Assembly: GCF_030384885.1 (NCBI RefSeq)
Contig: NZ_CP128613.1
DNA from: Escherichia coli
GTDB lineage: Bacteria; Pseudomonadota; Gammaproteobacteria; Enterobacterales; Enterobacteriaceae
Direction: 5' to 3' (one strand)
Length of the DNA stretch: 64,000 bases
Shown here one piece after another: positions 20,291 through 43,241 of this stretch (its first letter is position 1; every line of letters begins with the position of its first letter). The translations under genes were made by a program, and so were the position numbers. Below the pieces are notes generated by a model. The model had not been told where the DNA came from, made no database searches, and worked only from the letters and a program-made list of their open reading frames with translations.

Positions 20291-20472
20291 AAGTTACCCT
20301 CAAACCTGCGTTAATAATCATGCGTAATTATTTGTTTCGCCTTAAAGAAATGCAAACAACTTCCGGCAAAAAAGTGATACAAGATCGATAACATAGCGTT
20401 GAAGAAAAGGATTTGATAATCCGCAAAATTTGCACAACACTGCCTGTAATACTTCCTGAACCAGAGACGATC

Positions 20473-22916: not shown

Positions 22917-24959
22917 ATGGATGATAAACAAATTACGGTCTGGCTTAAACACAATTGCTGTTCAACGGACATTCCTGCCATTGCCGAGGCACTAACGAAC
23001 CATGCAGAATGGCTTTTAGAGCTAGCGCCAGATCCTATTGAACAAGGTTGTTCATGTTTACCGCCGACAGCTGCAGCCGGTATTTTTCTTGGCGCAGCGG
23101 CGATGGTTCACTGCGGCGAGGCTAGTGGTGCAGAAACCTGGCTCGAAGCAGCCATTACTGATTACCATTTCTTTAATCCAAATGGATATAGTTCATGGAG
23201 AGGCAGTACGCCTGTTTTTACAGCATTATCGCGTTACCCGGCATTAAGAATGGTGTTATTTAACGCCGCTTGCGCAATGGAAGACTGGAATAAAGCATCC
23301 GCTGTTCTTGAATCGCTTTTCCATGCCAGCGATGTAACGGAAGATAACCCTGTCGCCCCCAATTTTACCCCTTATGCGCTGAAAGCGTTTATCGCGGATT
23401 ACCACCCGTTAGGGCCTGCTTATTATGATGAAACCTGGTTGCTGGCAAAACAAGCGTGGTTAATTAATGCGGGCGTTCTGGATGAGCGAACCTGTAATAC
23501 CTGGAAGCAATATACCCGCCATTTGCGCCATTTGATCCATAATGCACAGTTTTCCGATGCGATCTCTTTTGTACGCAGTAAAAAAGAACCATTAAATCAT
23601 ATCCATACCTACTCAGACTTTTATCTCTATGCGATTGGTTTATTTTCTTCTACTGATCAGCTAAGTGAAGCGCTAACCTGGGTAAAACAATTAATCCGCA
23701 ACAATGATGGTCATTTCCATGATCTTTTCGTTTCAACTGGCGCAAAGCGCCGAATAAAGCCTGAACTTAGTACCTTGCTGAATAATCTCTTGTACAGCGC
23801 AGAGTTTCAGGCGTTGCAGGATAAATATCTCACCGTCGGACATGATGTTGTGCATTCTGGTCCCTTCATGTCACTTTATGAAAAGGTTCTTGGCGGTAAG
23901 TCCCGAAAGCGCTGCGCGATTAGTCGAAAATTAATCTCACCCGGCGAAGCGGTTTATGAATATCGTCAGCTGGATAGTGTGGAATATATTGCAGCGAAAG
24001 CGGCCTTTCAGACATCTGAGCTAAATAATATCGCCCACCGGCATCATAATGATAGTTATCAGTGGCATGAATTTGCCGTCCAATGGCCTCGTCGGGGTTC
24101 ACTTTCTCACCCAGATATTGCCCGTTATTTGTTTGAGCGCCAGGAAGGAAAATGCTTTGATGCCGCAGAGTTTATACAACTGATTGCGGAACCGTTTGTC
24201 TTTCCGATGCGTTTCATATGGGTTGCCGGGTTGTCCTTTGAATTACATCAGTATCCGGATGCCTATTTCGTAAATGACAATATGGCGGGTGAATTTGTTA
24301 ATCTCTGCTGGATGGCTATGAAATGCGGACATGCTGGCGACATTTTCAAACAACTGGCCCACGAGCCGCATGACGTTGCTGACCCTATTTACGCCATGCT
24401 CGCCACGTTTGACCGCGCTGATTGCCGTAGCGCCGCCGCCGCGCACTTTGGACAACCGGAACTACCGGAAATAATGGCACTGGCTTTCAGTTCGAGGTTA
24501 TCGCTCGACAGCGTCCTTACCATCGCTGAGTTTGGTAAAAATCAGCCGCGATTTTCACATGCGCTAGCAACGGCCCTCCTGCGTTACAACCTGCACATCT
24601 ACTCAAACTATATGCCGCAGGTTAACTGGTACCTTCAGGGGCTGGAACACTATGCTTTGGCAAAAGGCGGTCAACTTTTAAATTTCTTTGTGCATATTCC
24701 AGAACAAATTCCCGTTCTGGCGACCATGCTGGAACATGGCGTATTAGTGCGTGGGATCGGTGAAGGTGCCTATGATGGTTATGATAATTCAGCAAATTCA
24801 TTTCATCATGCCGCCGTGATGCACTGCCTCACGCACGCGCCGGAAAAAGTCCGCTACTGGATGGAAACACCCTGGATTCAGAACTATTTAGTGAATGCGC
24901 CGCTGCGTCAAACGGCGCGCCATGTGGAAGCCTGGCATAAAAAGTTTGGCATCAAATGA
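22917..24959 (+). CDS. hypothetical protein, about 680 aa, no family recognised; probably cytoplasmic, Cys/His-rich N-terminus
   Basis: Single long ORF (table entry 22863..24959, which starts at a TTG); the ATG at 22917 has ggag 11 nt upstream. No signal peptide or TM segment by eye. Sits between convergent tpx and tyrR where recalled K-12 order has no gene. Confidence 0.6.
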   Translation: MDDKQITVWLKHNCCSTDIPAIAEALTNHAEWLLELAPDPIEQGCSCLPPTAAAGIFLGAAAMVHCGEASGAETWLEAAITDYHFFNPNGYSSWRGSTPVFTALSRYPALRMVLFNAACAMEDWNKASAVLESLFHASDVTEDNPVAPNFTPYALKAFIADYHPLGPAYYDETWLLAKQAWLINAGVLDERTCNTWKQYTRHLRHLIHNAQFSDAISFVRSKKEPLNHIHTYSDFYLYAIGLFSSTDQLSEALTWVKQLIRNNDGHFHDLFVSTGAKRRIKPELSTLLNNLLYSAEFQALQDKYLTVGHDVVHSGPFMSLYEKVLGGKSRKRCAISRKLISPGEAVYEYRQLDSVEYIAAKAAFQTSELNNIAHRHHNDSYQWHEFAVQWPRRGSLSHPDIARYLFERQEGKCFDAAEFIQLIAEPFVFPMRFIWVAGLSFELHQYPDAYFVNDNMAGEFVNLCWMAMKCGHAGDIFKQLAHEPHDVADPIYAMLATFDRADCRSAAAAHFGQPELPEIMALAFSSRLSLDSVLTIAEFGKNQPRFSHALATALLRYNLHIYSNYMPQVNWYLQGLEHYALAKGGQLLNFFVHIPEQIPVLATMLEHGVLVRGIGEGAYDGYDNSANSFHHAAVMHCLTHAPEKVRYWMETPWIQNYLVNAPLRQTARHVEAWHKKFGIK

Positions 24960-24996
24960 ACGTTGCCGCTGCGCCTGAACGGCGCAGCCAGCACAA

Positions 24997-26538
24997 TCAC
25001 TCTTCGCTTTTCTTCTGGTTTAAGCCATATTCCCGCAACTTATTGGCAATCGCGGTATGCGAAACGCCGAGACGTTTTGCCAGTTTGCGCGTGCTGGGAT
25101 AATTGCGATAAAGCTGAGTTAATACCGAGCGTTCAAAACGGCTGGTGATTTCGTCCAGCGAACCTTCCATCGCATCTTCGCCCACGGCTACCGTTGCGGC
25201 GTCATAATCCGGTAACAAAATATCCTGTGGACGTAGCTCATAACCGTCCAGTTGTGTCAGTGCGCGATAAATAGCGTTCTTTAACTGCCGCACATTTCCC
25301 GGCCACGCATAACGCGTAAGTACAGTATTCAGGTCAGCGGCCAGTTTCGGACGCGGCACGCCCTGCTCGTCGGCAAAGCGGGCGACGAACAGCTCGGTTA
25401 ACGGCATGATGTCCTGCGGACAGTCACGTAGCGGCGGCAGATTGAGCGTCAACACGTTCAGACGATAATAGAGATCTTCACGGAAAACGCCTTTTTGCAC
25501 CAGTTCGACTAAATTCTTCTGCGTAGCGCAAATAACCCTTACATCGACATGCACTTCATGATCTTCACCAACTCGACGGAAAGTACCATCATTAAGGAAA
25601 CGCAGTAATTTCGCCTGCATCCTTGGCGACATCTCGCCTATCTCATCTAACAGCACCGAACCACCGTTCGCCTGCTCAAAGAACCCTTTTTTACCTTCCG
25701 GAGCATGACCAAACAGTTCACTCTCGACCGCATCTTCCGGTATAGACGCGCAGTTCAGCGCCAGGTAAGGTTTGCCCGCTCGTGGGCTTGCCTGATGGCA
25801 GGCGTAGGCAAAGAGATCTTTACCTGTACCGGTGTCACCCGTAATCAGCAACGGCGCGCTTAGCATCGCCAGTTTCTGCGCCTGTTCGACAACATGCTTC
25901 ATTTTCGGGCTGACGGCGACAATTTGACTGAAGGCACTGACGTCCTGTGCAGCGACATTCTGCAACTGACGGCCCATACGAATCGTCGAGCGCAACATCA
26001 CCACCGCACCGGTCAGAACGTGTTGATCATTTTCATCCTGAAGATAAACAGGCGTAATCTCCATCAGGAAATTCTGCCCATTAATAACGACATGCTCGTT
26101 ATGCGAGTCTTGCGGTTCGCTTTCCAGCCAGCGTAAAAAATTAAAGCCGTTAATTAATTGCGCGGCGGTATGGTTGCGCAGGCGATCCAATTTTTGCCCA
26201 AAAAGCTGACAGCTCGCCGGGTTCGCCATATCCACTTTGCTTTTCATATCAACAGAAAGCACAGGCTCAGGCAACGCCTCCAGTAACGCGCTCAACGCCA
26301 GATGCTCACGTTCGGAAGGCATCCACGGAACAGTGCGCACATCGGTAACACCTGCAATACGGCGTATTTCGGCCATCAGACTGCTGAAACTTTCAAATTC
26401 CAGTTCGGCAAAATTGAGGTAGATTCGCCCAATGGGGTCAATCTCAATACCGCGTAAATCAATGCCTCTTAGCACGAGTAGATCGAGTAATTCGCGGGTC
26501 AGACCGAGTCGGTCTTCACAAAAGACTTCCAGACGCAT
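24997..26538 (-). CDS. tyrR: transcriptional regulator TyrR (sigma54-type AAA+ enhancer-binding family)
   Basis: 513 aa from the ATG at 26538 (MRLEVFCEDRLGLTREL); central AAA+ domain (GDTGTGKD, GAFTGA-like) and C-terminal HTH. Confidence 0.93.
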   Translation of the reverse strand: MRLEVFCEDRLGLTRELLDLLVLRGIDLRGIEIDPIGRIYLNFAELEFESFSSLMAEIRRIAGVTDVRTVPWMPSEREHLALSALLEALPEPVLSVDMKSKVDMANPASCQLFGQKLDRLRNHTAAQLINGFNFLRWLESEPQDSHNEHVVINGQNFLMEITPVYLQDENDQHVLTGAVVMLRSTIRMGRQLQNVAAQDVSAFSQIVAVSPKMKHVVEQAQKLAMLSAPLLITGDTGTGKDLFAYACHQASPRAGKPYLALNCASIPEDAVESELFGHAPEGKKGFFEQANGGSVLLDEIGEMSPRMQAKLLRFLNDGTFRRVGEDHEVHVDVRVICATQKNLVELVQKGVFREDLYYRLNVLTLNLPPLRDCPQDIMPLTELFVARFADEQGVPRPKLAADLNTVLTRYAWPGNVRQLKNAIYRALTQLDGYELRPQDILLPDYDAATVAVGEDAMEGSLDEITSRFERSVLTQLYRNYPSTRKLAKRLGVSHTAIANKLREYGLNQKKSEE

Positions 26539-26608
26539 GGGAACCTTCACCTGAAAAAAGAACAATTAATATGATGATATGACACTATTTGGATAGCAGG
26601 AAGGTTTC

Positions 26609-26626
26609 TGTCAACAATCATTGACA
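26609..26626 (-). promoter_or_regulatory. TyrR box (TGTAAA-N6-TTTACA-like palindrome) in the tyrR promoter
   Basis: tgtcaacaatcattgaca is an 18-bp palindrome matching the TyrR box pattern, upstream of the tyrR start. Confidence 0.55.
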
Positions 26627-26685
26627 CAAAGACGGAAAAACGGGCACTTCGGCGTAAAGATATCCGGTCAGCACCCGATATTGCA

Positions 26686-27747
26686 TTATTTTTCGCTGGG
26701 CGTTTTGCCTTTTTGCAGCGTCTCTTTCACCTGACCGATAAGCTGACGACGGAAATCCCCGAGGCGAGGTTTGTCATCGTCAATCCACGGCAGCGGGCGG
26801 CAAAGCTCCATAGCTTTAATCCCCAGTCGTGCCGTCAGAAGTCCAGCACCAATCCCCTGAGCTGCCCGGGTAGACAAACGCGCAGCGAGATCTTGCGACA
26901 TCCAGTCCATCCCCACTTCGCGCACCAGTTCGCTGGCTCCGGCGAAAGCGATATTCAGCAATACCAGCTTAAACAGGCGCAAACGGCTGTAATATCCCAG
27001 TTCAATGCCATACAGCGTGGCGATGCGATTGATCAAACGCAGATTGCGCCAGGCGATAAATGCCATATCCACCAGCGCCAGCGGGCTAACGGCGATCATT
27101 AACGTTGATTCCGCCGCTGAGCGACTGATTTCGCGCCGCGCCTGGGCATCTAAAACCGGCTGGACCAGATGAGCATACAGGCTGACCACTTCACGATCGT
27201 TCTGCGTTTCATGGATTGAGGCATACCAGCGTTGCAGTGCCGGATGCGACTGGTCGATGCCCGCCTGCTGCGCCAGTTTTTCGCAGAATGCACGGCCTTT
27301 ACCCGTGCCGTGACTGTGCAACAAATCGCGCGCTTCGTCGCGTTCATGGGCGCGCTGTCGCAAGCGCCATAAACGCCGCCACTCTGTTACCACAGAACCT
27401 ACGCCAGCGCCGATAATCAATGCCCCAGCGGCACATCCACCCAGCGCTACCCAATCCTGAGTTTGCCAGGCATTCATCGTCCACTGCACGCCCTGCCCGA
27501 CAACGCTTGCACCAAACAGAGCCAACCCGCCCATCACCATTTTGCGCCACAGGCTGCGTTTCGGACGTAACGCTGCGTCCATCACCGCTTCAACTTGCCC
27601 CTCTTCTTCCTGCGCTTCGTCGAGCGTGGCCGGGGCAAAATTTTGCGCCTGATTTTCGTCAAAGGTCTGCTGCGCCCTGAATTTTGGATTCTGATCGACC
27701 TCCAGTGGACCGTCGAAATCAATACGTGGTTTTAACGGTTCGGTCAT
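26686..27747 (-). CDS. ycjF: UPF0283 inner-membrane protein YcjF
   Basis: 353 aa with predicted TM helices; start overlaps the ycjX stop by 4 bp (operon). Confidence 0.85.
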
Positions 27748-29141
27748 CGCAATTTATCTCCTATTAAAAATTCCAGCGCAGCATCAAGACGAATATGCGG
27801 CAGCGGTTTGTCGACATCCATCACCTGCGGACGAAACGCCTCAAACTGGAAGCCTTGCTTATCCCAGAACGCCTGACCAGGCAAACGTGCGGGAACTTCG
27901 CCAGGATAAACAGTGAGCGGTGCGCCATCGCTGAGTCGATTACCGCGCAGCGCCGGGATTTTCTCACCGTTAACATCAATAATGCCGCTGGTGGTCGCCT
28001 GAACTGACGCCAGCCCCAGGCAGTCCATGCTGATCCCTTCGAACGCCGCATTTTGCCAAGCATCCTGAATCAGTTGTTGCAGTAATGAAACCATATTGGC
28101 GTGCTGATCGATGGTCACATGGTCTGCTTTAGTGGCAGCAAACAATAGCTTATCGATAACCGGCGAAAACAAACGCCGGAACAGGGTTCGCTGCCCGTAG
28201 TGGAAACTTTGCATCAGCTGCGTCAGCGCCAGACGCATATCATTAAATGCCTGTGGCCCACTGTTGAGCGGTTGCAGGCAATCCACCAGCACAATCTGCC
28301 GATCAAAGCGCAGAAAATGATTTTTATAGAACCCCTTCACCACTTTCTCGCAGTAATAATTAAATCGTTCGCGCAGCATTCCGGCATTGGTGTGCTTGTC
28401 GGCCTGTGCAAGTTTTGATTCGCCCCAGGCATCGACATCTGGCCACGGGAAGAATTGCAGCGCGGGCGCACCTGCCATATCGCCCGGCAAGACAAAACGT
28501 CCAGGCTGAATAAAGTGCAGCCCCTGCTGTTTGCAGTGGTGGAGATAATCGGTCCATGCGGCCGCAATGTCTGCAAGACGGTTTTCGTCGGCAGGTGCTA
28601 GTGGGTCCAGCCCTTCGCACATCATTCGCCATTTTGCCGACCATTCGCCGCGCTGACCATTGAGTAAGCCCGTCATCTGGCGCGACCAGCTTAAATAGTC
28701 CTGCGCCAACATCGGCAAGTCGAGTAACCATTCGCCGGGATAATCCACTATCTCCAGATACAACGTGGAAGTGTCTTTGAAGTGACGCAACAGCGAATCG
28801 TTCGATTTATAGCGTAGCGCCAGGCGAATCTCACTGACGCCGCGTGTTGGGGTCGGCCAGGCGGGAGGATCGCCATATAACTGCGCCAGCCCTTCATCGT
28901 AGGTGAAGCGCGGAATGCCAAAGTCACGCTGGGGAATGCGTTTTACGCCCAGCAGGCGCTCTTCACGCACCGCACTTAATAGCGGCAAGCGTGCTCCGGC
29001 ATGAATATTGAGCAACTGATTGACCATCGCAGTGATAAACGCGGTTTTGCCGCTGCGGCTAAGTCCGGTTACAGCGAGGCGCAGATGTCTGTCGACACCC
29101 CGATTCACCAGCGCATTAAGTTCATTTTTAAGTCGCTTCAT
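27744..29141 (-). CDS. ycjX: P-loop NTPase YcjX (DUF463)
   Basis: 465 aa; Walker [11 protein letters not shown] near the N-terminus. Confidence 0.85.
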
Positions 29142-29284
29142 TGCTGTCCTGTGGACCAGAAAAAATCATTCGTAAGGATATGAATGTGGGGGCCATGCCC
29201 TTGATTATCAACTGCCCGTGTTGTCATCTTGAGGGGAACTCCATAAGATGTGCAGCATTCACGTTCGGACGGAGTTCCTGACCT

Positions 29285-30283
29285 ATGTCCCCTACTATTT
29301 ATGATATTGCCAGGGTTGCCGGCGTATCAAAGTCCACCGTATCACGCGTGCTGAATAAGCAAACCAATATCTCCCCGGAAGCGCGCGAAAAAGTGTTACG
29401 GGCCATTGAAGAATTACAGTATCAGCCAAATAAACTGGCCCGCGCGCTGACCTCTTCGGGCTTTGATGCCATTATGGTGATTTCTACCCGTTCGACCAAA
29501 ACTACGGCGGGTAACCCGTTTTTCTCCGAAGTTTTGCATGCCATTACCGCCAAAGCGGAAGATGAGGGTTTCGACGTGATATTGCAGACGTCGCACAACC
29601 CGGCTGAAGACTTACAAAAATGTGAAAGCAAAATTAAGCAGAAAATGATTAAAGGCATTATTATGCTAAGTTCGCCAGCAGATGAGTCTTTTTTCGCCCA
29701 ACTCGATAAATACGATATTCCGGTGGTAGTAATTGGCAAAGTTGAAGGTGAATATGCCCATGTTTATTCTGTCGATACCGATAATTTTGGCGACAGTATT
29801 GCGCTGACCGATGCATTAATTGAAAGTGGACATAAAAATATTGCCTGCCTACATGCTCCGCTTGATGTCCATGTTTCGGTTGACCGCGTTAATGGTTATA
29901 AGCAAAGTCTGGAAGATCATAATATTGCAGTGCGCAATCAGTGGATCGTTGACGGCGGTTATACCCATGAGACAGCACTGCAAGCCGCGCGGGAATTATT
30001 AAGCCAGTCACCGTTGCCTGAGGCAGTGTTTGCTACTGACAGCCTGAAATTAATGAGCATTTATCGTGCGGCGGCAGAGAAAAACATTGCTATTCCGCAG
30101 CAGTTAGCGGTGGTGGGTTATAGTAATGAAACGCTGTCGTTTATATTAACGCCTGCACCGGGCGGCATCGATGTTCCGACGCAGGAGTTAGGTCAACAAA
30201 GCTGCGAGTTATTATTCCGCTTAATTGCCGGAAAACCGTCACCACAAAATATTACCGTTGCCACGCATATGTCGTTGAAATAA
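29285..30283 (+). CDS. ycjW: LacI-family transcriptional regulator YcjW
   Basis: 332 aa; N-terminal HTH ([21 protein letters not shown]) and periplasmic-binding-protein-like domain. Confidence 0.9.
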
Positions 30284-30299
30284 ATGCCAGCTACGTTGC

Positions 30300-30385
30300 C
30301 TGAATGCCGGATGCGATGCTGGCGCATCTTATCCGGCCTACATTTATAAACCGGATAAAGTACTCGCGCCGCATCCGGCAATTTA
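30300..30385. repeat. REP elements between ycjW and ompG
   Basis: gccggatgcgatgctggcgcatcttatccggcctac and ccggataaagtactcgcgccgcatccggc. Confidence 0.8.
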
Positions 30386-30393
30386 GCACATTA

Positions 30394-31299
30394 TCAGAAC
30401 GCGTAATTCACACCGACACCTGCATAATGGAATTTATCGCTATCGCCTTCGTCGTGATCCTGCCACTCAAACGCATATTCCAGCGAAACGGAAAGACCAT
30501 TCTGGAAATCATAACCGTAAAACAAACCAAGACGGTTAAAATCATGGCCTTCACGTTCGATATCATCCTGCCAGTCCCAGTTACTCCAGCGATCCAACCC
30601 AATGCGCGTATACGGCGTCACCGAGTGATTGCCGAGCGTCAACGGTAAATAGGCGCGAATTTCTTGCGTGGAGAATTCACCGTTATTGCGGCTGTCGTCC
30701 ATATTGAAGCCGCGCTCGAGATAATAGTTCACCCGCAAGGCAACCGTTTCGTTGAAAGTATATTGCAGACCCGTTTCCGTTTCGACACGGGTATCAGCAT
30801 AACCGGTCGTGTTCAGATCGTTGGCAAATTTATACATCGACAGCCAACCGTTGAAACGTAAATCGTCAGTCAGTTTCACGTCCCAGTCTGGCGCGATTTT
30901 CCAGCGCTGCATATTTGCCGTGTCTTTACCCGGTTCATCAACATAGTGATAACCATAGTTACGGAAACCACCGGTCAGGCCGAAACTGAAATCATCGCTT
31001 TCGAGAAACTGATAATGCACTTCCAGTTCCGGGCGATCAAACCAGGTTCCACGTTTACCCGCGCTATAATCTACTGGCCCTTCCTGGTAATAAGCCAGCG
31101 ATATTCTCCACGGCCCGTTGGCAGCATTAAAATAGACGGAAGGCTCCGCCAGCCCGTCCATATCTTCGCCATAACCCTCGACGTTTTCTATTTCGTACAT
31201 CGCGCCGATATTAAAGTGCCAGTCTTTTTTTTCCTCAGCCTGTGCGCAGGCCATTCCCGCACACATCACCAGTGCGGTACAGGGTAATAACTTTTTCAT
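30394..31299 (-). CDS. ompG: outer membrane porin OmpG
   Basis: 301 aa; signal peptide then beta-barrel ending in an aromatic residue (YAF). Confidence 0.92.
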   Translation of the reverse strand: MKKLLPCTALVMCAGMACAQAEEKKDWHFNIGAMYEIENVEGYGEDMDGLAEPSVYFNAANGPWRISLAYYQEGPVDYSAGKRGTWFDRPELEVHYQFLESDDFSFGLTGGFRNYGYHYVDEPGKDTANMQRWKIAPDWDVKLTDDLRFNGWLSMYKFANDLNTTGYADTRVETETGLQYTFNETVALRVNYYLERGFNMDDSRNNGEFSTQEIRAYLPLTLGNHSVTPYTRIGLDRWSNWDWQDDIEREGHDFNRLGLFYGYDFQNGLSVSLEYAFEWQDHDEGDSDKFHYAGVGVNYAF

Positions 31300-31343
31300 T
31301 ATTGTTCCTTGTATTATCCTGGGGGAATGCCTTCCCCCTGTAT

Positions 31344-32426
31344 TTAGCGAATTGCTATTTCCGTTTCTGCATCAAAGAAATGACATTTGGTCATATCGAA
31401 ATGAATAGTGACGTTTTCTCCTGCATGATAATCATTTAACGCACCGGCACGGACCACCAGCTCGTGCCCCCCAACCGTGGTGTAGAGCATAAATTCCGCA
31501 CCGGTTAATTCCGCCACGCTAATTTTGGCGGAAATGTTATTTTCCTCTTGCGCATCCGGATGAATATCTTCCGGGCGTATTCCCATCACAATGGGTTTAT
31601 GCAAACTTTCCTGCGTTTTCAGAACCGCTAATTTATCTTCGGGAATGGTTAATTTAAGCGTTTCCGTAACGAATTTATCGCCATCGATCGTGCCGCGAAT
31701 AAAATTCATTGCTGGTGACCCAATAAATCCGGCAACAAACATATTCGCCGGTTGGTTATAGACCGTTTTCGGCGCACCGACCTGCTGAACAATCCCATCC
31801 TTCATAATGACAATCCGCGTCGCCATGGTCATCGCTTCGGTCTGATCGTGGGTCACGTAGATCATGGTGGTGTTCAGTTTCTGATGCAGCTTGCTGATTT
31901 CCGCTCGCATTTGTACGCGCAGCTTGGCATCCAGGTTAGAGAGCGGTTCATCCATTAAAAACACGCCCGCTTCGCGCACAATCGCCCGTCCGAGCGCCAC
32001 ACGCTGGCGTTGCCCGCCGGAAAGCGCGCCCGGCTTGCGTTTCAGGTACTCACGCAGGCCGAGGATTTGCGCCGCCCAGTTAACCCGCTCATCAATCACC
32101 TCTTTGGCGATTTTTTGCATCTTCAGGCCAAACGCCATGTTGTCGTAGACCGTCATATGCGGATACAGCGCGTAGTTCTGGAAAACCATCGCGATATTGC
32201 GCGCTTTGGCCGGAACGTCGTTCATTCGTTTGCCGTCGATCAACAGATCGCCGCCGCTGATCTCCTCAAGCCCGGCAATCATACGCAGCGTCGTCGATTT
32301 ACCGCAGCCCGACGGACCGACAAACACGATGAACTCTTTATCGGCAATCTCCAGGTTGAAGTCCTTCACCACATGCACCTGGTTATCGTAGATCTTTTGA
32401 ATATGTTGTAACGAAAGCTGTGCCAT
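31344..32426 (-). CDS. ycjV: ABC transporter ATP-binding protein (MalK-like), apparently intact
   Basis: 360 aa; Walker A GPSGCGKST, signature LSGGQRQR, Walker B FLMDEP. Confidence 0.88.
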   Translation of the reverse strand: MAQLSLQHIQKIYDNQVHVVKDFNLEIADKEFIVFVGPSGCGKSTTLRMIAGLEEISGGDLLIDGKRMNDVPAKARNIAMVFQNYALYPHMTVYDNMAFGLKMQKIAKEVIDERVNWAAQILGLREYLKRKPGALSGGQRQRVALGRAIVREAGVFLMDEPLSNLDAKLRVQMRAEISKLHQKLNTTMIYVTHDQTEAMTMATRIVIMKDGIVQQVGAPKTVYNQPANMFVAGFIGSPAMNFIRGTIDGDKFVTETLKLTIPEDKLAVLKTQESLHKPIVMGIRPEDIHPDAQEENNISAKISVAELTGAEFMLYTTVGGHELVVRAGALNDYHAGENVTIHFDMTKCHFFDAETEIAIR

Positions 32427-32439
32427 GTTGATTCCTTTG

Positions 32440-33099
32440 CTATACGTTTTGCCAGAAGGCCGATAACCGCGGCCAGGTCAGGGACTCCGTTGAGGGCAAC
32501 AGTAATTGCGCCCCAGTTAAGCCCGCGCCGATCCCCACCGAACGCATACCGCTGGCGTTAATGGCGTCAATGCCCGCCTGCGCATCTTCAATGCCGATAC
32601 ATGCCTGCGGCGGCACGCCCAGCCCGGCACAGGCGGCGAGAAAGATTTCCGGGTCCGGTTTCGAGTGTTTAAGTTGGGAAGCGTCCGCGCAGAAGGTGAA
32701 AAACTCGCGCAGCTCCAGCGCCGCTAAAATTGTTGGGGCATTCAGAGAGACGGAGGCCAGCCCTACCGGGATGCCTTGCGCCCGAAGATCTGCCAGCAAA
32801 GGCCGAATTCCCGGCAGAACAGCGTTAACCGTCAGTTCGCGCAGTGAGTGGACGTAGAGCAGATTTTTGCGATACGCCAGTTGCGCCCGCTCTTGCACGT
32901 TAAAGTCGCCCTCTTTGCCCCCGTGTTGCAGAATGCGCCGCAGGGACTCATCGCGGCTGATCCCTTTTAACGTCTCGTTAAATTGCGCATCGATGCTGAT
33001 GCCGATTTCGGCGGCAATCTGCTGCCATGCCTGGAAGTGCAGATGTGCGGTGTCGGTGATCACGCCATCCAGATCGAAAATTACCCCTTGTAGTTTCAT
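32440..33099 (-). CDS. pgmB: beta-phosphoglucomutase (HAD superfamily)
   Basis: 219 aa; HAD motif [10 protein letters not shown]. Confidence 0.9.
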
Positions 33100-35363
33100 T
33101 CATCCTCCTGATGTTTGGTAGCGGTCCCATTGAAGGGCAAAATAAAATCACCCAAACAGAAAACAGATTCTTCAGTCACGGAAATAAGCTGACCGTTCAA
33201 CCGCATTGAAACGGGCGCAGAAGTTCGAATCGCAATACGCTGCGCGTCGAGAGTGACCTGTAATTCGCAGCCCTGCCAGAACAAAGGGAAAGATAACTGT
33301 TGCCACTGCTCAGGTAACGCTGGGTTCAGATGTAATTCGCCGTCGCGCACGCTGACTCCGGCAAAACCCTGAATCGCCCCCAGCCAGATAGCGCCAGTTG
33401 CGGCGGCATGGATACCGTCATCGCAGCTATGCGGATCAGCACCAAGATCGATTTCACTCCCCTCGCGCCAGAACGGGTAACTCTGCGCAAGCAAGCCACA
33501 ACGCGCGGCAACAATGCCGTGGATCGCTTTACTCAATGACGAGTCGTGAATGGTGCGCGGTTCATAAAATTGCAGATTGGCGAGACACGAGGCCGCTGAA
33601 AATTGTTCCGGTAGCATGTAATTGAGCATCACCACATCGGCCTGCTTGAGGATCTGCATCTCGTTCACTTCTGCGCGTGAATAATCCAGCAGAATGGTTT
33701 GTTTACCTGCCGCCGCTTTGTATTTCGCCAGATCTATCGCCGGTTTCGCCATAAACGAATCATCCTGCGGCAAAACGCCGTCGGGCTGAATTTCTGGCAT
33801 CCACAGCTCTTTGAGGAACATGTCGGCACGATGAATAAACGCATCGTCGCTACAGCCAAACTGGCGAGCAATATTCAGTGCCTGTTGGACGTTGTAGCAG
33901 GCCATATAACTTGTGTATGCGTTATTGTTAACGTGTTCGGTATATTCGTCTGGCCCAATAACATCATGAATTTCCAGACGATCGTTAACCCTTACCGCGC
34001 GGCTAATCCAGAACTTTGCGGTCTCCAGCAGTAGCGCCATGCCTTCGTGAGCAATGAAGCTTTCATCCCCCGTTACCTGCCAGTATTGAATAACCGCCCA
34101 GGCGATATCGGCAACCAGATGATGTTCTGCCTGCGCTGAGGCCACTTTTTGCCGCAGCCCAGTACGAATGTTAATGGCGGCAAATTCCGGCGTTTCTTCT
34201 TCGCCGCTACGTGCGCTCTCCCACGGAAACAGCGCGCCCTGCCAGCCATTGCGTCGCGCTTTCTCCTGCGCGCCAGGCAAGTTGTGCCAGCGATAGCGCA
34301 GTAAACTTCGGGCAATCGTCGGTTCGCTAAACAGATGGAACGGCAGCAGAAACACTTCCGTATCCCAGAAAACGTGGCCTTTGTAGCCTTCGCCGGTTAA
34401 GCCTTTCGCCGCAATGCTGCTACGCTCGTCATGGGCGGGCGTCATAATACGCAAATGATAAAGCGCATAGTCTAACGCCCGCTGAGCGTGCGCATCGCAA
34501 CTGTTTACCGTGATACGACGTTTCTGCCACCATTGCAGCCAGTTTTCTGTGGATGCTGCAAGAAGTTGGTCATAACTCTGCTGCGCGCACATTTCGAGCT
34601 GGCGAAGCGACGCACTGCCCCACTCGTCTAAAGCAGCTTGTCGGTCGTCCCGCCAGTCAATCCACACCCGCTTTTGCAAGGTCAGTGTTTCACCTGTGCG
34701 AAGTTGCGCGCTGGTATGTTGCAGCAAACGGCGCTCTTTTGCGGTATAGCACTGCTGAACGTCACCATCCGCCTGACAGTGACAACTGATTGCCACATCA
34801 CTGCGCCCATCCTGGGTGGTATAGATCCCCTGCATCAAATGCTGACCAAACACCCGCACCTGGGTTTCGTCGAGATGCTGGCGACCGTGGTTGGTTTGCG
34901 TGGCATCAATGCCTGTTGAGATCAGCACTGATGCCTCGGCATCCAGCGGGGTAATACTGATTTCCAGCGCGATCAGCGGCAGTTGATCTGTCGAAACAAA
35001 ACGACGGCTTTCAATGGTGAACCCTGCGCCGTCGCTGGTGCGCCAGATAACACTGCGGCGTAATTCTCCACTGGCAAAGTCAAGCTCACGCTGCCACGCT
35101 TCGCGCGATAACGAAAAAATCTCGCCGTTTAGGGTAATTTCCATTCCCACCACGTCTGGCAGATTCACCAGTTCGTTGATTTCTCCTTTACCCGCTCGAT
35201 GATACAGCCCTGCCAGATACATGCCGCGCGTCTGCCGCGTGTAATCTTCTTCATGGCTGGCACGAAGCCCAAGATAGCCGTTCCCCTGCGCCATTAATGA
35301 GGCATATTTATTCAGGGTATGCTGGCTGAAATGGGGTTCCGTTAATGTTACTGGCCTGGTCAT
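33096..35363 (-). CDS. ycjT: kojibiose phosphorylase (GH65)
   Basis: 755 aa GH65-type protein; start overlaps the ycjS stop. Confidence 0.88.
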
Positions 35364-36415
35364 AATTCCACACGCGTCCCTGTTTCTGCGGATTGATACA
35401 GCGCCGCCACCAGTTGCTGGATGATGTACCCTTGCTCGGCGTCGGCAATCATCACTGGCTTGCCCTGTACGTGATTGATAAAGGCTTCCATGCTGCGCAA
35501 ATGACGGTTGTCGTCGGCCAGTTCCCGTTGCATCAGCGTCATTAATTCACCGTTGTTATCGGTATAGATATGCGCCGGAAACAGCGTGGCTCCCGCTTTA
35601 TCACCGCAAAAGCTGACGTTCATAATCGACTGTTCGCGGATGTTGAGTGCAAATGATGTCTCGAGCCAAAGAATGCCGCCGTTATGAAATTCAATGGTGC
35701 CAAACAGCGAATCTTCGACGCTGTAGGCTGCCGGGTCCCACTCGCCAAATTGACCACAGCTCTTTTGCGGGCCGATCTTTTGAAAGCTGTGCGCATTCAC
35801 GCTTTTCACCGCCGGAAAGCCCAGCACATACATCGCGGCATCCAGCATATGAATGCCAATATCGATCAGCGGGCCGCCGCCCTGCAGTTCTTTATTGGTA
35901 AAGACACCCCAACCGGGAACACCGCAGCGACGCAGGGCGCGGGCGGTCGTGACGTAAATCTCACCCAAAACGCCGTTGGTCACCTGTTCACGCAGTTGTT
36001 GCGTATCAAGGGCAAAACGATGGTGAAAGTCGTAGGCCAGCACCTTGCCCTGTTTACGCGCGGTATCACACATCTCCCGCGCCTGTTCCGGCGTCATGGC
36101 GGGCGGTTTCTCGCACATCACATGGCAGCCTGCCTCCAGCGCCATCAGGGTATGCTCGTAATGAAAACGGTTAGGTGAACAGACGCTTACCACGTCAGGT
36201 TTTACCGCCAGCAGCATGGCCTGCGGATCGTCCCACACGGATGCATTCCCGTATTTCTCTGCCAACGCCTGCGCCTGGGAAAGGCGGCTGTCACAGACAG
36301 CCACCAGTTCCAGATCGTTGCGGGTGCAGTAGTACGAAGCATGAACCTTATCCGCCACCTGGCCCGCGCCTATTATCGCGACCCGCAGCGGAGAGCTTGT
36401 CATTGCACTTTTCAC
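35360..36415 (-). CDS. ycjS: Gfo/Idh/MocA-family NAD-dependent oxidoreductase (glucoside 3-dehydrogenase)
   Basis: 351 aa; Rossmann motif IIGAGQVA at the N-terminus. Confidence 0.88.
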   Translation of the reverse strand: MKSAMTSSPLRVAIIGAGQVADKVHASYYCTRNDLELVAVCDSRLSQAQALAEKYGNASVWDDPQAMLLAVKPDVVSVCSPNRFHYEHTLMALEAGCHVMCEKPPAMTPEQAREMCDTARKQGKVLAYDFHHRFALDTQQLREQVTNGVLGEIYVTTARALRRCGVPGWGVFTNKELQGGGPLIDIGIHMLDAAMYVLGFPAVKSVNAHSFQKIGPQKSCGQFGEWDPAAYSVEDSLFGTIEFHNGGILWLETSFALNIREQSIMNVSFCGDKAGATLFPAHIYTDNNGELMTLMQRELADDNRHLRSMEAFINHVQGKPVMIADAEQGYIIQQLVAALYQSAETGTRVEL

Positions 36416-36424
36416 AAAGACCTC

Positions 36425-37213
36425 TTAGCAGGTGCGCAACCAGGCCAAAGAATCACGGTACGCCTGAGCAGGATCTTCTGCCCGAATGCGCCCTTCATAC
36501 ACCACATAGCCCTGATAGTTATCGGCGCGCAGCTGTTCAAACAGCGCGTGGAAATCGAGGGTGCCGCTGCCCGGCTGGTAGCGATGGTTATCCGCAATAT
36601 GCACATGACCGAGCAGGTCGCGGTTGTCATGCAGCGCCTGCGCCAGGTTATCTTCTTCGATATTCATGTGATAGAAATCGCCGATAATCTGCACATGTTT
36701 AAGATCGTTTTCGACGATGTAACGGCGGGCATCGGCGAGGGTGTTGATCATGTGATCCTGATAACGGTTTAACGGTTCGAGATACACCACCGTTCCGGTA
36801 CGTGCGGCCACCTTTTCCAGGAAACGAAGGGAATCGCTCACCATTTGACGATCGCCGTCCAGGCTGCGCGGCGAGGTCATCGGCGGTAAGCGAAAGGTAA
36901 ACATGCCCCACGCTGCCGGAACGACAATACCTTTGCCGCCCACTTCCGCCAGCGCCTCAAGAATGCGCTCGATCTGCTTTAAACCATTAAGACGACGCTC
37001 TTCGATAAAGTCGCCAATCCAGCCGTCATAGCCGCCGCAGGCGGTGGTCACCGGTAAACCGGTTTCTTTGATCGCTGCTTTGACTTCTTCGATATTGTTG
37101 ACCAGCAGTTTGCCGTCAATTTCAAAACCATCAAATCCCATCTCTTTGATATAACGAAATTTCTCCAGAATATTTTCCGGAAAGAACGCCTGATTCTGTG
37201 TGCCGATTTTCAT
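36425..37213 (-). CDS. ycjR: sugar phosphate isomerase/epimerase family protein (3-keto-glucoside epimerase)
   Basis: 262 aa xylose isomerase-like TIM barrel. Confidence 0.85.
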   Translation of the reverse strand: MKIGTQNQAFFPENILEKFRYIKEMGFDGFEIDGKLLVNNIEEVKAAIKETGLPVTTACGGYDGWIGDFIEERRLNGLKQIERILEALAEVGGKGIVVPAAWGMFTFRLPPMTSPRSLDGDRQMVSDSLRFLEKVAARTGTVVYLEPLNRYQDHMINTLADARRYIVENDLKHVQIIGDFYHMNIEEDNLAQALHDNRDLLGHVHIADNHRYQPGSGTLDFHALFEQLRADNYQGYVVYEGRIRAEDPAQAYRDSLAWLRTC

Positions 37214-37229
37214 TTTTCCGTCCTTAGAA

Positions 37230-38282
37230 TTAAAAAGTTACGCCCATTTTGATGCTCTGTTCCGGATGCTGGTCGACATACTGCATGTAGCTTTCCGGGC
37301 TGTTAGCAAAGGTCACCACCGGGTCGATTAAATCTTCACAATTGAGATAACCGTTCATCAGCAGTTCCCAGCAGGTTTCTTCAATACGCTTGCGACTCCA
37401 GCGCGGATAATCCGGGTTCGGTTCACTGCACGCACGAGAGAAGACAATTTTGGCGTTGTTGAAATGCGCTTCACGTCCGAGGTTGAAACCTTCGGCAAAT
37501 GGTTTGGCAAATGCGACATACGAGATGGTGCCGCCATAAGCCAGGCCGCGCAGTGCCGATTGCAGCGCGTCGGCGTAGCCGCTGGTTTCGATAATCACAT
37601 CGGCACCCTGCTTGCCGGTCAGCGTTTTAATCTCTTTGCCTACATCTGTGCCAATGGGGTTAAGGCAGAAATCCGCCCCGTGGCGACGGGCAATATCACA
37701 GCGATGAGCGATAGGATCGACACCAATCACCACCGACGCGCCAGCGCGTTTTGCCAGTTGAATGGCAATTTGACCAATCGCGCCAAGCCCTACCACCACC
37801 ACAAAATCGCCCACGCGCACGTTGGCATCGCGCACGCCGCTCATGGCAAACTGCGCCGGGTCGTAACAGACGGCGTTTTTCCACGAGCTACCTTGCGGCA
37901 TCTTGCGCAGTTTGTAGTTATTCACCGCGTTAATGATGACCGTTTCGGAAAGCGGGCCGTAGCCGCATACGCTGTCACCCACCGCGTAGTCGGTAACGTC
38001 GCTGCCGCACTCGATAATGTCGCCAACCACCATGTTGCCAAGCTGGAACTTGCCAAACTCAATGCCGCGCGGCGCATCTGCCGGACGGGGGGTGAACATC
38101 TGCCATTCGCCATTAAAGTCTTCATCGATAAACGGGCTGGCGGCGCGGAAATCGACCACTTCCGTCCCGTGCTTCGGCGCGCCGAACCGCACGCGGATCT
38201 TCACTTCATTGGCTGAAATCGCCCTGTCTTCATACTCCACCAACGCGGCAACGCGCGGTGCTGTGGCTACTAACTTTTTCAT
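37230..38282 (-). CDS. ycjQ: zinc-binding alcohol dehydrogenase family protein
   Basis: 350 aa; MDR fold with GLGAIG Rossmann motif. Confidence 0.85.
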   Translation of the reverse strand: MKKLVATAPRVAALVEYEDRAISANEVKIRVRFGAPKHGTEVVDFRAASPFIDEDFNGEWQMFTPRPADAPRGIEFGKFQLGNMVVGDIIECGSDVTDYAVGDSVCGYGPLSETVIINAVNNYKLRKMPQGSSWKNAVCYDPAQFAMSGVRDANVRVGDFVVVVGLGAIGQIAIQLAKRAGASVVIGVDPIAHRCDIARRHGADFCLNPIGTDVGKEIKTLTGKQGADVIIETSGYADALQSALRGLAYGGTISYVAFAKPFAEGFNLGREAHFNNAKIVFSRACSEPNPDYPRWSRKRIEETCWELLMNGYLNCEDLIDPVVTFANSPESYMQYVDQHPEQSIKMGVTF

Positions 38283-38312
38283 GTAAAACTCCTTGTCAAG
38301 AAACTGGCCGCT

Positions 38313-39155
38313 TTAGCCCTTCACGCCACCGGCGGTCAAACCACTCTTAATAAAACGTTCCGAAAGTGCATACATAATCACCACCGGCAATGCGGTCACC
38401 AGCGAGGCCGCCATCATTCGGCCCCAGATGTAATCAGGGGTACTGAACAGCGCGTTCAGGCCTACCGGTAAAGTGAAATTGCTGGCGCTGGAGAGGAAAA
38501 TCGAGGCAAACAGATAGTCGTTCCACGCCACCATAAAGCAGTAGACGAACACGGATATCAGCCCGGACATCGCCAGCGGTACCGTGATGCGGAAGATGAT
38601 TTGCAGCCGGTTGAGGCCATCCATCATCGCCGCTTCTTCGATTTCATCGGGGATGGTGTCGAAGTAGCTTTTCAGCATAAACACGGCGGTAGGCAGGGTT
38701 TGCGTCACCATGGTGATGATCAGCGCCATCTCGGTGTCGTAAACGCCAAGCGCGGTGATGATTTTGAACAGCGGCACCACCAGCAAAATGCCGGAGAACA
38801 TGTACACCGTGTAGAAGCTGGCGTTGATGGTCATTCGCCCTTTAAAGCGCAGGCGGGAAAGCGCGTAAGCCCCGAGAATGCCGAGAAATACTGCTATCAC
38901 GGATGAAACTACCGACACCACCATGCTGTTACGGAAATAATCGACAAACGGGAAAATCACCGGGTTAAAAATGTCGACGTAATACTCCAGCGTCCACTGC
39001 TGTGGCAGCAGCGTAGGATGCAGCGAGATCGCCTCTTTCGCGCTTTTGAACGAGGTCATCAGCATCACAAAAAACGGAAACAACGTGATGATGAGAAACA
39101 GCGCCAGCCCGCAGTAAAAACCGATGCGACTGAGTGTGCGTTTATTTGTTGCCAT
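38313..39155 (-). CDS. ycjP: ABC transporter permease (MalG-like)
   Basis: 280 aa polytopic membrane protein; part of the ycjM-V cluster. Confidence 0.88.
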   Translation of the reverse strand: MATNKRTLSRIGFYCGLALFLIITLFPFFVMLMTSFKSAKEAISLHPTLLPQQWTLEYYVDIFNPVIFPFVDYFRNSMVVSVVSSVIAVFLGILGAYALSRLRFKGRMTINASFYTVYMFSGILLVVPLFKIITALGVYDTEMALIITMVTQTLPTAVFMLKSYFDTIPDEIEEAAMMDGLNRLQIIFRITVPLAMSGLISVFVYCFMVAWNDYLFASIFLSSASNFTLPVGLNALFSTPDYIWGRMMAASLVTALPVVIMYALSERFIKSGLTAGGVKG

Positions 39156-40022
39156 TGAGGTTCACCCGTTTTCTGGTCAGCAGAATGACAGCGAAAATAA
39201 TGATGAAGAGCACCACCGAGATCGCCGCCGCTTTCCCTAAGTCATTAAAGGCAAAGGCGGTTTTGTAGAGATAGACGCCGAGAATATCGACCTTGGTCGT
39301 CAGCAAATAAACGTCAGCGAACATGTAGAACATCCAGATGGTACGCAGAGTCACCACCGTCGCCAGGACCGGCATAATCGCGGGCAGCGTGACGATGCGA
39401 AACCGTTGCCAGGCATTCGCGCCGTCCATCTCTGCCGCTTCGTACAACGATTTATCAATGGTCTGCAAAATCGCCAGAAACGAGATAAAGGCATACGGGA
39501 GTAGCGCCAGATGGCGAACAGCACCACCAGCACAAAACTACTGCCCGGGTTATCGAACCACAGCGGCGCCTGCTCATAGAGATGCAGAAGATCGACGCCG
39601 AGGTAGTTCACAATGCCGTAGCCGTTGTTGAACATGTATTTCCAGGCGAACACCAGCGAAATGGATGGCGTTACGTAGGAGAGGATCACCAACGAACGCG
39701 CGGTTTTGCGCAGGCGAAACTCGCGGTTGAAAAACATCGCCACCGCCAGCCCGAGCACGGTGCTACCTGCCACCACCAGCGCGGTATACCAGACCGTCAT
39801 CCACAGCGAGTGCCAGAAGCCGGGATCGGAGAGAATACGCACATAGTTGCTCACCCCAACAAACGTTGACTCGATGTTGGGATTGAGCGGCAGACGTAAA
39901 AAACTGATTTCGATATTCGACACCATTGGCCACGCCACCAGACCGCCCAGCAGTAATAAGCTGGGCGCGAGAAGCAGCAGCGCAAAGGGCATATCGGAAC
40001 GACCTGAAAAAAGCCTGTTCAT
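39142..40022 (-). pseudogene. ycjO: ABC transporter permease YcjO, interrupted by a -1 frameshift near 39510
   Basis: Two overlapping ORFs (39351..40022, N-terminal part; 39142..39468, C-terminal part) each carry a recognisable part of one MalF-like permease; the reading frame breaks after ...FAIWRY. Confidence 0.75.
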
Positions 40023-40042
40023 TGCGGATTCCTGTCCTGGGA

Positions 40043-41335
40043 TTAGTGCTGTTCGATCAGTTCATCCAGCTTTTTCTGGCTCGCTTGCAGCGTGGTTGAG
40101 AGATCGGCTTTCCCCACGGTGACGTTATGCACCATTGAACTCACCACACCAGACCCCGTGACATCGCCCATGCGGGTAAAGTTTTTGTCCCCTACCGCAC
40201 CAAAGACCTGAATGTTTGGCAGTTCGCTAATCAACTGATTCGGCAAGTCTCCCAGCGCCTTAATCACGTCGTTATCTTTCCAGGTGGCAGTCGTCACAAC
40301 CGCTTTGTTAACCGGCAGCGCCGCGCCTGGCGACATCATCACCCAGTCGGCAATGTTGTCCGCCTGCTCCATAAAGGTGACAAATTTTTCTGCCGCTTCC
40401 GTCTCTTCGCTCTTTTGCCCGGCGGTAATGGTCAGCGAGGTCAACATGCCGTAGACCGCCGAGTTTTTCTCGGTTGGCACCACGAAACCGACATTTTTCG
40501 GGTCACCTTCTTTAATCACAGCCGGAAGGATATAGGTGGAGTAAATCGCCATCGGCGCGGTGCCGTTCATAAAGGCGTCTTTCACTTCCATAATGTCGTT
40601 AGAACCCGGCATGGTGTTGGCAGCAAGGTCGCGGTAATAGGTCAGCGCCTGCATCATCTCCGGCGTATCAAGGGTGATTTTGCCTTCGGCGTTAAAAACG
40701 TTGGCCTGATTGGATAACGCAAACTGGGAGAACGATTGTTCCGTCAGTACGCTTTCTGCCGTCGGAAGAGCAATACCGTATTTTTTATTCGCCGGATCGT
40801 TCAGTTTCTGTGCGACATCCAGCAACTGTTGCCAGTTTTTCGGCTCATCCAGCCCGGCTTTTGCCAGCACATCTTTGCGATACCAGATACCGCCAATCCA
40901 TGCGCTGACAGGAACACCAGTCCAGGCGCTACCATCTTCGGTGCGCACAATCCGTAGAACGCCGTCATAAAACGCGCCTTCACCGACATTACTGATGACC
41001 GTAGCAACCGCTTTGCGATCGATAAGCTGTTCTTTGTCCATCACTTTCGCGTAGTCATGGCTGGTTTCGATCACTTCCGGCAGCGAGCCGCTACGGGAAA
41101 GGGTGATGACTTTGGTGTTATAGGCATCTTCTTCCACCGGCACCTGTTTAACAGTGATGCCTGGGTTTTCTTTTTCAAAACGCGCAATTAACTGACTAAT
41201 TACCGCCTGGCGTTCCTGTTCCACCGAAGAATGCATAAACTCGATGGAGACATTCGTTTTATTTTCTTCTTTACAGCCTGAAATCAGGGCGCAGGAAACC
41301 AGTGCTGATAACAGCACGATTTTTGATTTAATCAT
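40043..41335 (-). CDS. ycjN: ABC transporter periplasmic sugar-binding protein
   Basis: 430 aa; lipoprotein-like signal (LSALVSCALISGC) and family 1 solute-binding protein. Confidence 0.88.
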   Translation of the reverse strand: MIKSKIVLLSALVSCALISGCKEENKTNVSIEFMHSSVEQERQAVISQLIARFEKENPGITVKQVPVEEDAYNTKVITLSRSGSLPEVIETSHDYAKVMDKEQLIDRKAVATVISNVGEGAFYDGVLRIVRTEDGSAWTGVPVSAWIGGIWYRKDVLAKAGLDEPKNWQQLLDVAQKLNDPANKKYGIALPTAESVLTEQSFSQFALSNQANVFNAEGKITLDTPEMMQALTYYRDLAANTMPGSNDIMEVKDAFMNGTAPMAIYSTYILPAVIKEGDPKNVGFVVPTEKNSAVYGMLTSLTITAGQKSEETEAAEKFVTFMEQADNIADWVMMSPGAALPVNKAVVTTATWKDNDVIKALGDLPNQLISELPNIQVFGAVGDKNFTRMGDVTGSGVVSSMVHNVTVGKADLSTTLQASQKKLDELIEQH

Positions 41336-41348
41336 GAGATGTTCCTTT

Positions 41349-43028: not shown

Positions 43029-43200
43029 GTTGCCTTTCCGTGGTAGCGGTCCCATGAAACGAGAGACTACTCCGCAGAAAATAAACTGTCAATTGAGCAC
43101 AAGGGTTTTAGTCACGCAGGAAATCATTTTTTACCAGGGAAAAAGCGTATTTGTGAGCTGACGCAAATAATCTATGGGGATGTAAATAAGGTGTGACAGA

Positions 43201-43224
43201 AAAAGTAAACGGCGCATAAGCGCC
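43201..43224 (-). terminator. Rho-independent terminator downstream of pspE
   Basis: Minus-strand hairpin GGCGCTTATGCGCC followed by GTTTACTTTT. Confidence 0.6.
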
Positions 43225-43241
43225 GCTTAGGGGGGATTCTT

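Follow-up and report, generated by a model that had tools for sequence, protein, structure and literature searches.

We found that the permease gene ycjO carries a single-base deletion in a 64,000-nucleotide stretch of Escherichia coli DNA (contig NZ_CP128613.1 of assembly GCF_030384885.1; hereafter the window). In all likelihood, this is a recent mutation that would inactivate the Ycj importer, the ATPase gene ycjV of the same strain is normal, and the lesions found in the ycj genes across E. coli are young, lineage-specific losses that arise sporadically in a catabolic locus dispensable under some conditions and follow no special pattern.

The ycj cluster in the window

The window contains the E. 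coli ycjMNOPQRSTUV-ompG/ycjW sugar-utilisation cluster and comes from a lineage near strain 2013C-4282 (Table 1). The gene order was found to be collinear with that of E. coli K-12 (ompN-uspF-ttcA ... fnr-ynaI-mppA-tyrR-ycjXF-ycjW-ompG-ycjV...ycjM-pspE...A-pspF-puu-sap-fabI). Previous work on the products of the cluster identified YcjT as a kojibiose phosphorylase, YcjU as a beta-phosphoglucomutase, YcjM as a glucosylglycerate phosphorylase, and YcjQRS as glucoside/3-keto-glucoside enzymes, and a ligand screen of YcjN in the same work was negative (PMC11543891). The repressor of the cluster is YcjW, for which sites have been mapped 5' of ycjM as well as in the ycjT-ycjU interval, and which lets go of DNA in vitro in the presence of kojibiose (PMC6599011).

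About 55 genes are common to the window and K-12. Approximately 50 of these were aligned end to end, and ycjO was the only disrupted gene among them, a finding at odds with widespread decay of the genome or an assembly of low quality. A Shigella-like background of general decay was rejected as an explanation, as no IS elements were seen in the 64-kb window and no second broken gene was found there.

Table 1 Features of the ycj cluster and of the ycjO and ycjV lesion sites in the window.
Feature	Position	Strand	Description
ycjW	29285-30283	+	LacI-type repressor of the cluster, intact; function per PMC6599011
ompG	30394-31299	-	Porin, intact
ycjV	31344-32426	-	ABC ATPase of 360 aa, intact; the YcjNOP-V importer's nucleotide-binding subunit
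G6 homopolymer in ycjV	31467-31472	-	Site of the G6->G5 frameshift of K-12 and some wild strains; G6 (intact) in the window
ycjU/pgmB	32440-33099	-	Catabolic enzyme, intact
ycjT	33096-35363	-	Catabolic enzyme, intact
ycjS	35360-36415	-	Catabolic enzyme, intact
ycjR	36425-37213	-	Catabolic enzyme, intact
ycjQ	37230-38282	-	Catabolic enzyme, intact
ycjP	38313-39155	-	Second permease, intact
ycjO	39142-40022	-	Pseudogene, MalF/MalG-type permease
ycjO C-terminal remnant ORF	39142-39468	-	108 aa, original frame, TTG start; EAA loop and TM5-6
Truncated ycjO product	39351-40022	-	223 aa (174 native and 49 out-of-frame)
ycjO frameshift site	39499-39501	-	Single T at 39500; intact alleles have TT
ycjN	40043-41335	-	Substrate-binding lipoprotein, intact
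ycjM	41349-43028	-	Glucosylglycerate phosphorylase, intact; longest ORF reaches 43055
Recombination mosaic tract	23540-39885	.	About 16 kb with 234 of the 238 SNPs versus 2013C-4282; ends inside ycjO

A single-base deletion in ycjO

The ycjO gene of the window is 881 nt long, compared with 882 nt in K-12. Alignment of the two genes located the difference to a single-base deletion (TT->T) at gene position 523, in codon 175 (TTC). The base that is missing is a T of 'TACTTCCCG' at window position 39500, and the intact sequence 'CGCTACTTCCCG' reads 'CGCTACTCCCG' in the window. The reading frame is thereby interrupted relative to intact orthologues, with five in-frame stops downstream. The first-pass annotation had proposed that the cluster of this strain carries a different lesion from that of K-12, in ycjO instead of ycjV, and the alignments agree with this.

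To characterize the effect on the protein, we compared the domain content of the intact and truncated products. K-12 YcjO matches the Pfam domain BPD_transp_1 at residues 88-280 (83 bits). No Pfam match was found in the 223-aa product of the window, and the remnant ORF matches profile positions 76-170 only. No single polypeptide in the window spans BPD_transp_1 with its EAA loop, and the break precedes the EAAEMDGA motif. In total, the deletion removes about 40% of the permease, the EAA loop included. Codon 175 appears to fall in TM4, the fourth hydrophobic segment as placed by eye, upstream of both the EAA loop and the final pair of TM helices. The C-terminal remnant is probably not expressed.

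The ATPase gene ycjV is intact

The first-pass annotation had described ycjV as encoding a complete 360-aa ATPase with all nucleotide-binding motifs, with coordinates that coincide exactly with the ORF at 31344-32426, and our analysis bore this out. The motifs present are Walker A GPSGCGKS (residue 37), the Q-loop VFQ (81-83), LSGGQ (135), Walker B VFLMDE (155), the D-loop SNLD (163), and the H-switch VTHD (191). The Pfam domains ABC_tran (110.5 bits), OB_MalK (54.8 bits), and TOBE_2 (42.0 bits) were all detected above their gathering scores, and this ABC_tran, OB_MalK, and TOBE layout is shared with MalK of MalFGK2. The closest solved structure is Bacillus subtilis MsmX (6yir), which aligned over the full length (E = 1e-148), and MalK (1q12) also aligned end to end. 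YcjV passed the NCBIfam model NF008653 of the UgpC subfamily (484.5 bits, cut-off 432) but remained below the cut-off of the MalK equivalog NF008233 (430 vs 568 bits). YcjV thus resembles MalK without being MalK itself, and it belongs with the ABC importer ATPases of the MalK/UgpC/MsmX (CUT1) type.

The YcjV protein of the window is identical at 357 of 360 residues to WP_000057985.1, an E. coli YcjV for which ATPase activity has been reported; in B. subtilis, YcjV could not replace MsmX (PMC7658222). Given the complete set of motifs and the 99% identity to an ATPase-active protein, the YcjV of the window is probably functional as an ATPase.

The K-12 ycjV frameshift and the G6 run

According to the first-pass annotation, ycjV is annotated as a disrupted gene in K-12, and this was confirmed. 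K-12 ycjV is labelled 'frameshifted' in the RefSeq annotation, our alignment shows G5 where the window has G6 (gene positions 955-960), one G having been lost, and the engineering literature names the K-12 site 'the pseudogene ycjV locus' (PMC10380740). The K-12 product consists of 320 native and 2 aberrant amino acids. It lacks the last 40 amino acids, which form part of the TOBE domain, and keeps the whole nucleotide-binding domain.

The intact ycjV of the window is the wild-type state, as ycjV is intact in nearly all E. coli and K-12 is the exception. A full-length ycjV match was found in 4980 out of 5426 complete genomes. The K-12 G5 allele, searched as a perfect match of 81 bp, was found in 369 out of 4995 genomes, and almost all of the 65 G5 matches listed were K-12 laboratory derivatives. 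All sampled genomes without the K-12 G5 allele retained G6 in ycjV. In the assembly collection, the K-12 YcjV product was found in 13,815 blocks. Strain QML220614 carries the exact K-12 ycjV haplotype but with G6, and the K-12 lesion is therefore derived.

Two carriers of G5 that are not K-12 were found among the matches listed, namely 2014C-3051, from human stool (5.6 Mb), and 08-00022, from bagged lettuce (5.2 Mb). The ycjV genes of both are annotated as 'frameshifted', and they differ from K-12 ycjV by 21 and 5 SNPs, respectively. The assembly collection lists the 322-aa product of these two strains (A232, G273) in 229 blocks, which indicates that it is real and natural. The G6->G5 change is found on three ycjV haplotypes that are 5-21 SNPs apart, and all of them share one sequence over nt 853-1083, up to the end of the gene. 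Independent slippage in the G-run is a plausible origin of G5 in the wild strains, and a single event spread by recombination is also compatible with these data.

We then compared the K-12 ycjV' pseudogene (b1318) with the ycjO pseudogene of the window. The two are alike in that the same transporter is affected, by a single-base deletion, in one subunit, with the rest of the cluster intact. However, the subunit that was hit is the ATPase in K-12 and the permease in the window, and the site is a G6 homopolymer in the former and a TT dinucleotide in the latter. The loss comprises the last 40 amino acids of YcjV in K-12 and about 40% of YcjO, including the EAA loop, in the window. For the protein, the K-12 lesion is the less severe of the two, as the nucleotide-binding domain remains whole. 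In addition, the K-12 ycjV allele is well known (PMC10380740), whereas our literature search found no paper describing an E. coli ycjO pseudogene.

Lesions of the cluster across E. coli

To place the two frameshifts in context, we surveyed the cluster in other E. coli genomes. The survey scored changes in length as well as large lesions, using evenly spaced sets of 30-60 genomes. The ycjN-O-P span measured exactly 3024 bp, which is the length in the window plus the missing base, in 59 out of 60 evenly spaced genomes. The remaining genome, strain a7, has retained only 6% of ycjNOP. Coverage of ycjNOP below 80% was found in 22 out of 5001 genomes. The whole ycjM-ycjW segment is absent from about 8% of genomes, in which pspE adjoins ycjX with about 100 bp of unrelated spacer between them. 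Individual lesions included a Mu-like prophage within ycjO of the O157:H7 strain NE 1092-2, an IS3 in ycjS of QML220614, a nonsense codon in ycjS of NZ_CP078573.1, which is a close relative of the window, and a partial ycjV in DXMF6-3R. A protein-database survey for truncated YcjO was uninformative, as clusters at 90% identity absorb truncated variants and the list consisted mostly of orthologues from other genera. The only E. coli YcjO variants visible in that survey were a few rare proteins, 262-268 aa long, together with fusion products.

These observations bear on whether the Ycj importer is lost recurrently, either by selection (against the import of a toxic sugar or the cost of expression) or through a mutational hot spot, with K-12 and the window as two samples of the process. 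Several of the lesions are what such a process would produce: the G6->G5 change in ycjV of K-12 and on different haplotypes of the wild strains 2014C-3051 and 08-00022, the prophage insertion in ycjO, the loss of ycjNOP in a7, the partial ycjV of DXMF6-3R, the two ycjS lesions, and the genomes without the ycjM-ycjW segment. However, no lesion extends beyond a narrow lineage, ycjNOP is of full length in all but one of the 60 sampled genomes, and the shared 3' haplotype of the G5 alleles fits one event followed by recombination.

As a control, we examined sapBCD, a transporter locus of similar length in the same window. A length deviation of 1 bp was found in 2 out of 59 sampled genomes, one of which is 2013C-4282, where sapC is annotated as frameshifted, and partial coverage was found in 8 out of 5421 genomes. 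Small lesions were not found in ycjNOP (0/59, against 2/59 in sapBCD) and large ones were found in 22/5001 genomes (against 8/5421), so that the lesion frequency is not above that of the control in these small samples, in which nonsense substitutions are uncounted and a modest excess of ycj lesions could have been missed. Single-base length lesions are no fewer in sapBCD than in the ycj genes, contrary to what recurrent loss of the importer would lead one to expect. The dN/dS values between the window and K-12 were 0.000 for ycjO, 0.014 for ycjV, 0.015 for ycjN, and 0.048 for ycjP. Values of 0-0.05 indicate strong long-term purifying selection on the transporter genes, with no relaxed or positive selection, and this long-term constraint also speaks against recurrent loss. 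We consider recurrent loss driven by selection or by a hot spot to be unlikely. It is similarly unlikely that E. coli loses the Ycj importer preferentially, whether by repeated selection against its substrate or as a contingency-like switch at the G-run of ycjV.

The first-pass annotation had suggested recurrent independent inactivation of this transporter. The part of this suggestion that stands is that several independent lesions exist in unrelated lineages; a notable pattern does not emerge, given the sapBCD control, the dN/dS values, and the 59 out of 60 intact ycjNOP spans. It had also proposed comparing the integrity of ycjV and ycjO across genomes. In that comparison intact genes are the norm, both for ycjV (4980/5426 full-length) and for ycjNOP (59/60), and lesions occur in other lineages as well. 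The only traits that are specific to the cluster are the mutable G6 run in ycjV and the presence/absence polymorphism of the cluster as a whole. The ycj lesions look like the usual background of pseudogenes that are young and specific to a lineage, with a mutable homopolymer in ycjV in addition.

The ycjO deletion is real and recent

We next considered whether the ycjO frameshift could be a sequencing or assembly artefact in a gene that is truly intact, a concern that the first-pass annotation had also raised. The lesion is a one-base deletion, and the 4981 complete E. coli RefSeq genomes having the site all lack it, with best matches at 98.8%, corresponding to one gap. In 2013C-4282, the complete genome nearest to the window, the site is intact. 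Each of these points would fit an artefact. However, the exact 223-aa product was called on 15 contigs of other assemblies or sequencing runs, comprising GCA_904842275.1, the Logan assemblies ERR13369355, SRR35948513, and SRR34938331, and 11 similar places. The four carrier loci that we retrieved were 99.99-100% identical to the window, with 0-2 SNPs. The carriers L012 and L013 differed from the window by 1 and 2 SNPs, respectively, which indicates that they are separate isolates of one clone. Moreover, the deletion site is a TT dinucleotide and not a long homopolymer, and no frame error was found in any other checked gene of the 64-kb window. In view of the 15 contigs, the SNP-distinct isolates, the dinucleotide site, and the lack of other frame errors, an artefact is very unlikely.

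We then examined the age and origin of the allele. With the T reinserted, the YcjO protein of the window is 100% identical to that of K-12 and 2013C-4282 (WP_001080790.1), and the ycjO genes of the window and K-12 differ by 28 synonymous and 0 non-synonymous changes. Outside the mosaic tract, strain 2013C-4282, isolated from human stool in the USA, is near-identical to the window, with 3 SNPs and one 1-bp indel over 20 kb; the near-identical stretches lie at 14-23.5 kb and 39.9-59 kb. A second genome, GCA_004115955.1 (L007), differs from the window at 36-42.4 kb by 2 SNPs and the indel, and its ycjO is intact. Import of the frameshift together with the mosaic tract of about 16 kb was rejected, as GCA_004115955.1 has the same ycjO haplotype in an intact form. 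The ycj cluster of the window has no second lesion besides that in ycjO. The identity of the repaired protein to that of K-12, the near-identical intact relative, and the lack of a second lesion point to a recent de novo origin. Judged from these sequence comparisons, the ycjO deletion arose de novo, is very recent, and is confined to a narrow clone.

Predicted consequences for the importer

In permeases of type I ABC importers such as MalFGK2, the EAA loop docks the ATPase. As in MalF and MalG, an EAA loop is present in the BPD_transp_1 permeases YcjO and YcjP. The deletion in the window shifts the frame at what appears to be the middle of TM4 and adds 49 aberrant residues before a stop, so that the product lacks the EAA loop and TM5-TM6. 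By analogy with MalFGK2, such a protein would be unable to pair with YcjP or to dock YcjV, and the YcjN/YcjOP/YcjV importer would be inactive because of the missing EAA loop and TM5-6. YcjV, YcjN, and YcjP would then be left as intact orphans.

The deletion may also affect the expression of other genes in the cluster. The start of ycjP normally overlaps the stop of ycjO by 14 nt, and in the window translation of ycjO ends 196 nt before the start of ycjP. This early stop could lower the expression of ycjP and the genes downstream through lost translational coupling and polarity. If the YcjW site between ycjT and ycjU marks an internal promoter, expression of ycjU-ycjV-ompG could persist.

It is very unlikely that the frameshifted ycjO remains functional, either as a split permease assembled from two pieces or by ribosomes returning to the frame. 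Split membrane proteins do at times assemble, and the 108-aa ORF in the original frame, with a TTG start at 39468, includes the EAA loop along with the final two TM helices. However, the break lies inside TM4, residues 175-185 are absent from both pieces, and the downstream product called by the gene caller is 77 aa long and starts after the EAA loop. A return to the frame is opposed by the lack of a slippery sequence or homopolymer at the site, and recoding was rejected because there is no slippery sequence there.

Significance of the ycjO and ycjV alleles

The ycjO allele of the window is new, yet it is an ordinary young lineage-specific frameshift pseudogene. It resembles the lineage-specific E. 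coli pseudogenes of accessory sugar loci in that it is young, is restricted to a narrow clone, and belongs to a cluster that is absent from some genomes. Nothing sets it apart from such pseudogenes, and sporadic lesions of a single base occur likewise in sapBCD (for example sapC in 2013C-4282). For genome scanning, ycjO can serve to calibrate what an ordinary young pseudogene looks like, being genuine and no commoner than in a control transporter.

The comparison also bears on work with K-12, on which almost all functional studies of the ycj genes rely. K-12 is a natural ycjV mutant, which is a caveat for such studies. Two recent papers on YcjN present YcjV as the ATPase of the transporter and leave its pseudogene state in K-12 unmentioned. 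The failure of MG1655 to grow with kojibiose as its only source of carbon (PMC6599011) could partly reflect a dead importer. The lineage of the window together with the intact 2013C-4282 or GCA_004115955.1 forms a natural permease-minus/wild-type pair, and K-12 together with QML220614-type strains forms an ATPase-minus/wild-type pair. Both pairs of natural strains are usable in the search for the substrate of the importer.

Divergence of the tyrR-ycj region

The ycj sugar-utilisation genes are unusually divergent between the window and the laboratory reference K-12. Identity to K-12 was 90.8% for ycjT and 92.3% for ycjN, compared with ~96-99% for the flanking genes. Against 2013C-4282, the closest complete genome to the window lineage, 234 SNPs were packed into a ~16 kb tract (23540-39885), and against GCA_004115955.1 (locus L007) 96 SNPs were packed into a ~5.7 kb tract (29332-35038). 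Beyond these SNP-dense tracts the window was nearly identical to both of these closely related genomes, and the differences were confined to discrete tracts. The tyrR-ycj region looks like a recombination mosaic. The ycjX-ycjW intergenic region contains an A-run, CCAGAAAAAATC (29153-29160), which lies upstream of both of these divergently oriented genes and is polymorphic in length among the loci. Most other loci carried one additional base or a 10-bp insertion at this site.

Gene content outside the ycj cluster

An ORF between tpx and tyrR, absent from K-12, had no matches in Pfam, NCBIfam, or PADLOC, and its counterpart in 2013C-4282 (WP_106907512.1) is annotated as a hypothetical protein. 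The GC content at 23-24 kb, within the ORF, was ~0.45, compared with ~0.52 in adjacent stretches. Among the E. coli loci compared with the window, the ORF was found in L002, L003, L007, L008, and L010 and was missing from some others. The ORF appears to be an orphan accessory gene at a variable site.

At 20290-20473 the window lacks ~2.4 kb that K-12 has, comprising pgrR, ycjY, and a remnant of ymjC, and mppA is directly followed by mpaA in both the window and 2013C-4282. No Rac prophage was found at ttcA in the window, where ttcA is preceded by a classical porin gene and a Usp-family gene. In K-12 an IS5 element adjoins ynaI, whereas the window has no IS5 beside this gene.

Features of the window outside the ycj cluster
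Feature	Coordinates	Strand	Remarks
Classical porin gene	888-2021		Porin_1; before ttcA
Usp-family gene	2090-2596		before ttcA
ttcA	2772-3707
ORF, 680-698 aa	22863-24959	+	annotated start 22917; flanked by tpx and tyrR
sapC	58602-59492		intact

In sapBCD, the control ABC transporter, 2013C-4282 carried a 1-bp deletion at window position 58898, in sapC, a gene annotated as frameshifted in that genome, and TUM13064 showed a similar 1-bp length deviation. Both changes could be genuine, or they could reflect homopolymer errors in long reads.

Absence and decay of the ycj cluster

The entire 14-kb ycjW-ycjM segment (window ~29150-43240) was missing from ~425 of 5426 complete E. coli genomes (~8%). 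In such genomes (e.g., NMBU_W05E18; locus L019, 4143-4260) pspE and ycjX were ~118 bp apart, separated by a spacer of ~100 bp of unrelated sequence. Their flanks were 98.2-98.6% identical to the window, which is nearer than those of most cluster-bearing genomes.

GCA_019269295.1 (L006; CP078573.1, 4.73 Mb) is closely related to the window lineage, being identical to the window at 20.3-22.8 kb and nearly identical at 25-29 kb and 36-42 kb. Its ycjS (locus coordinates 6012-7067) contains a nonsense codon, and its ycjM gene call is shortened to 429 aa. This constitutes a second, independent event of ycj-cluster decay in the clade of the window lineage.
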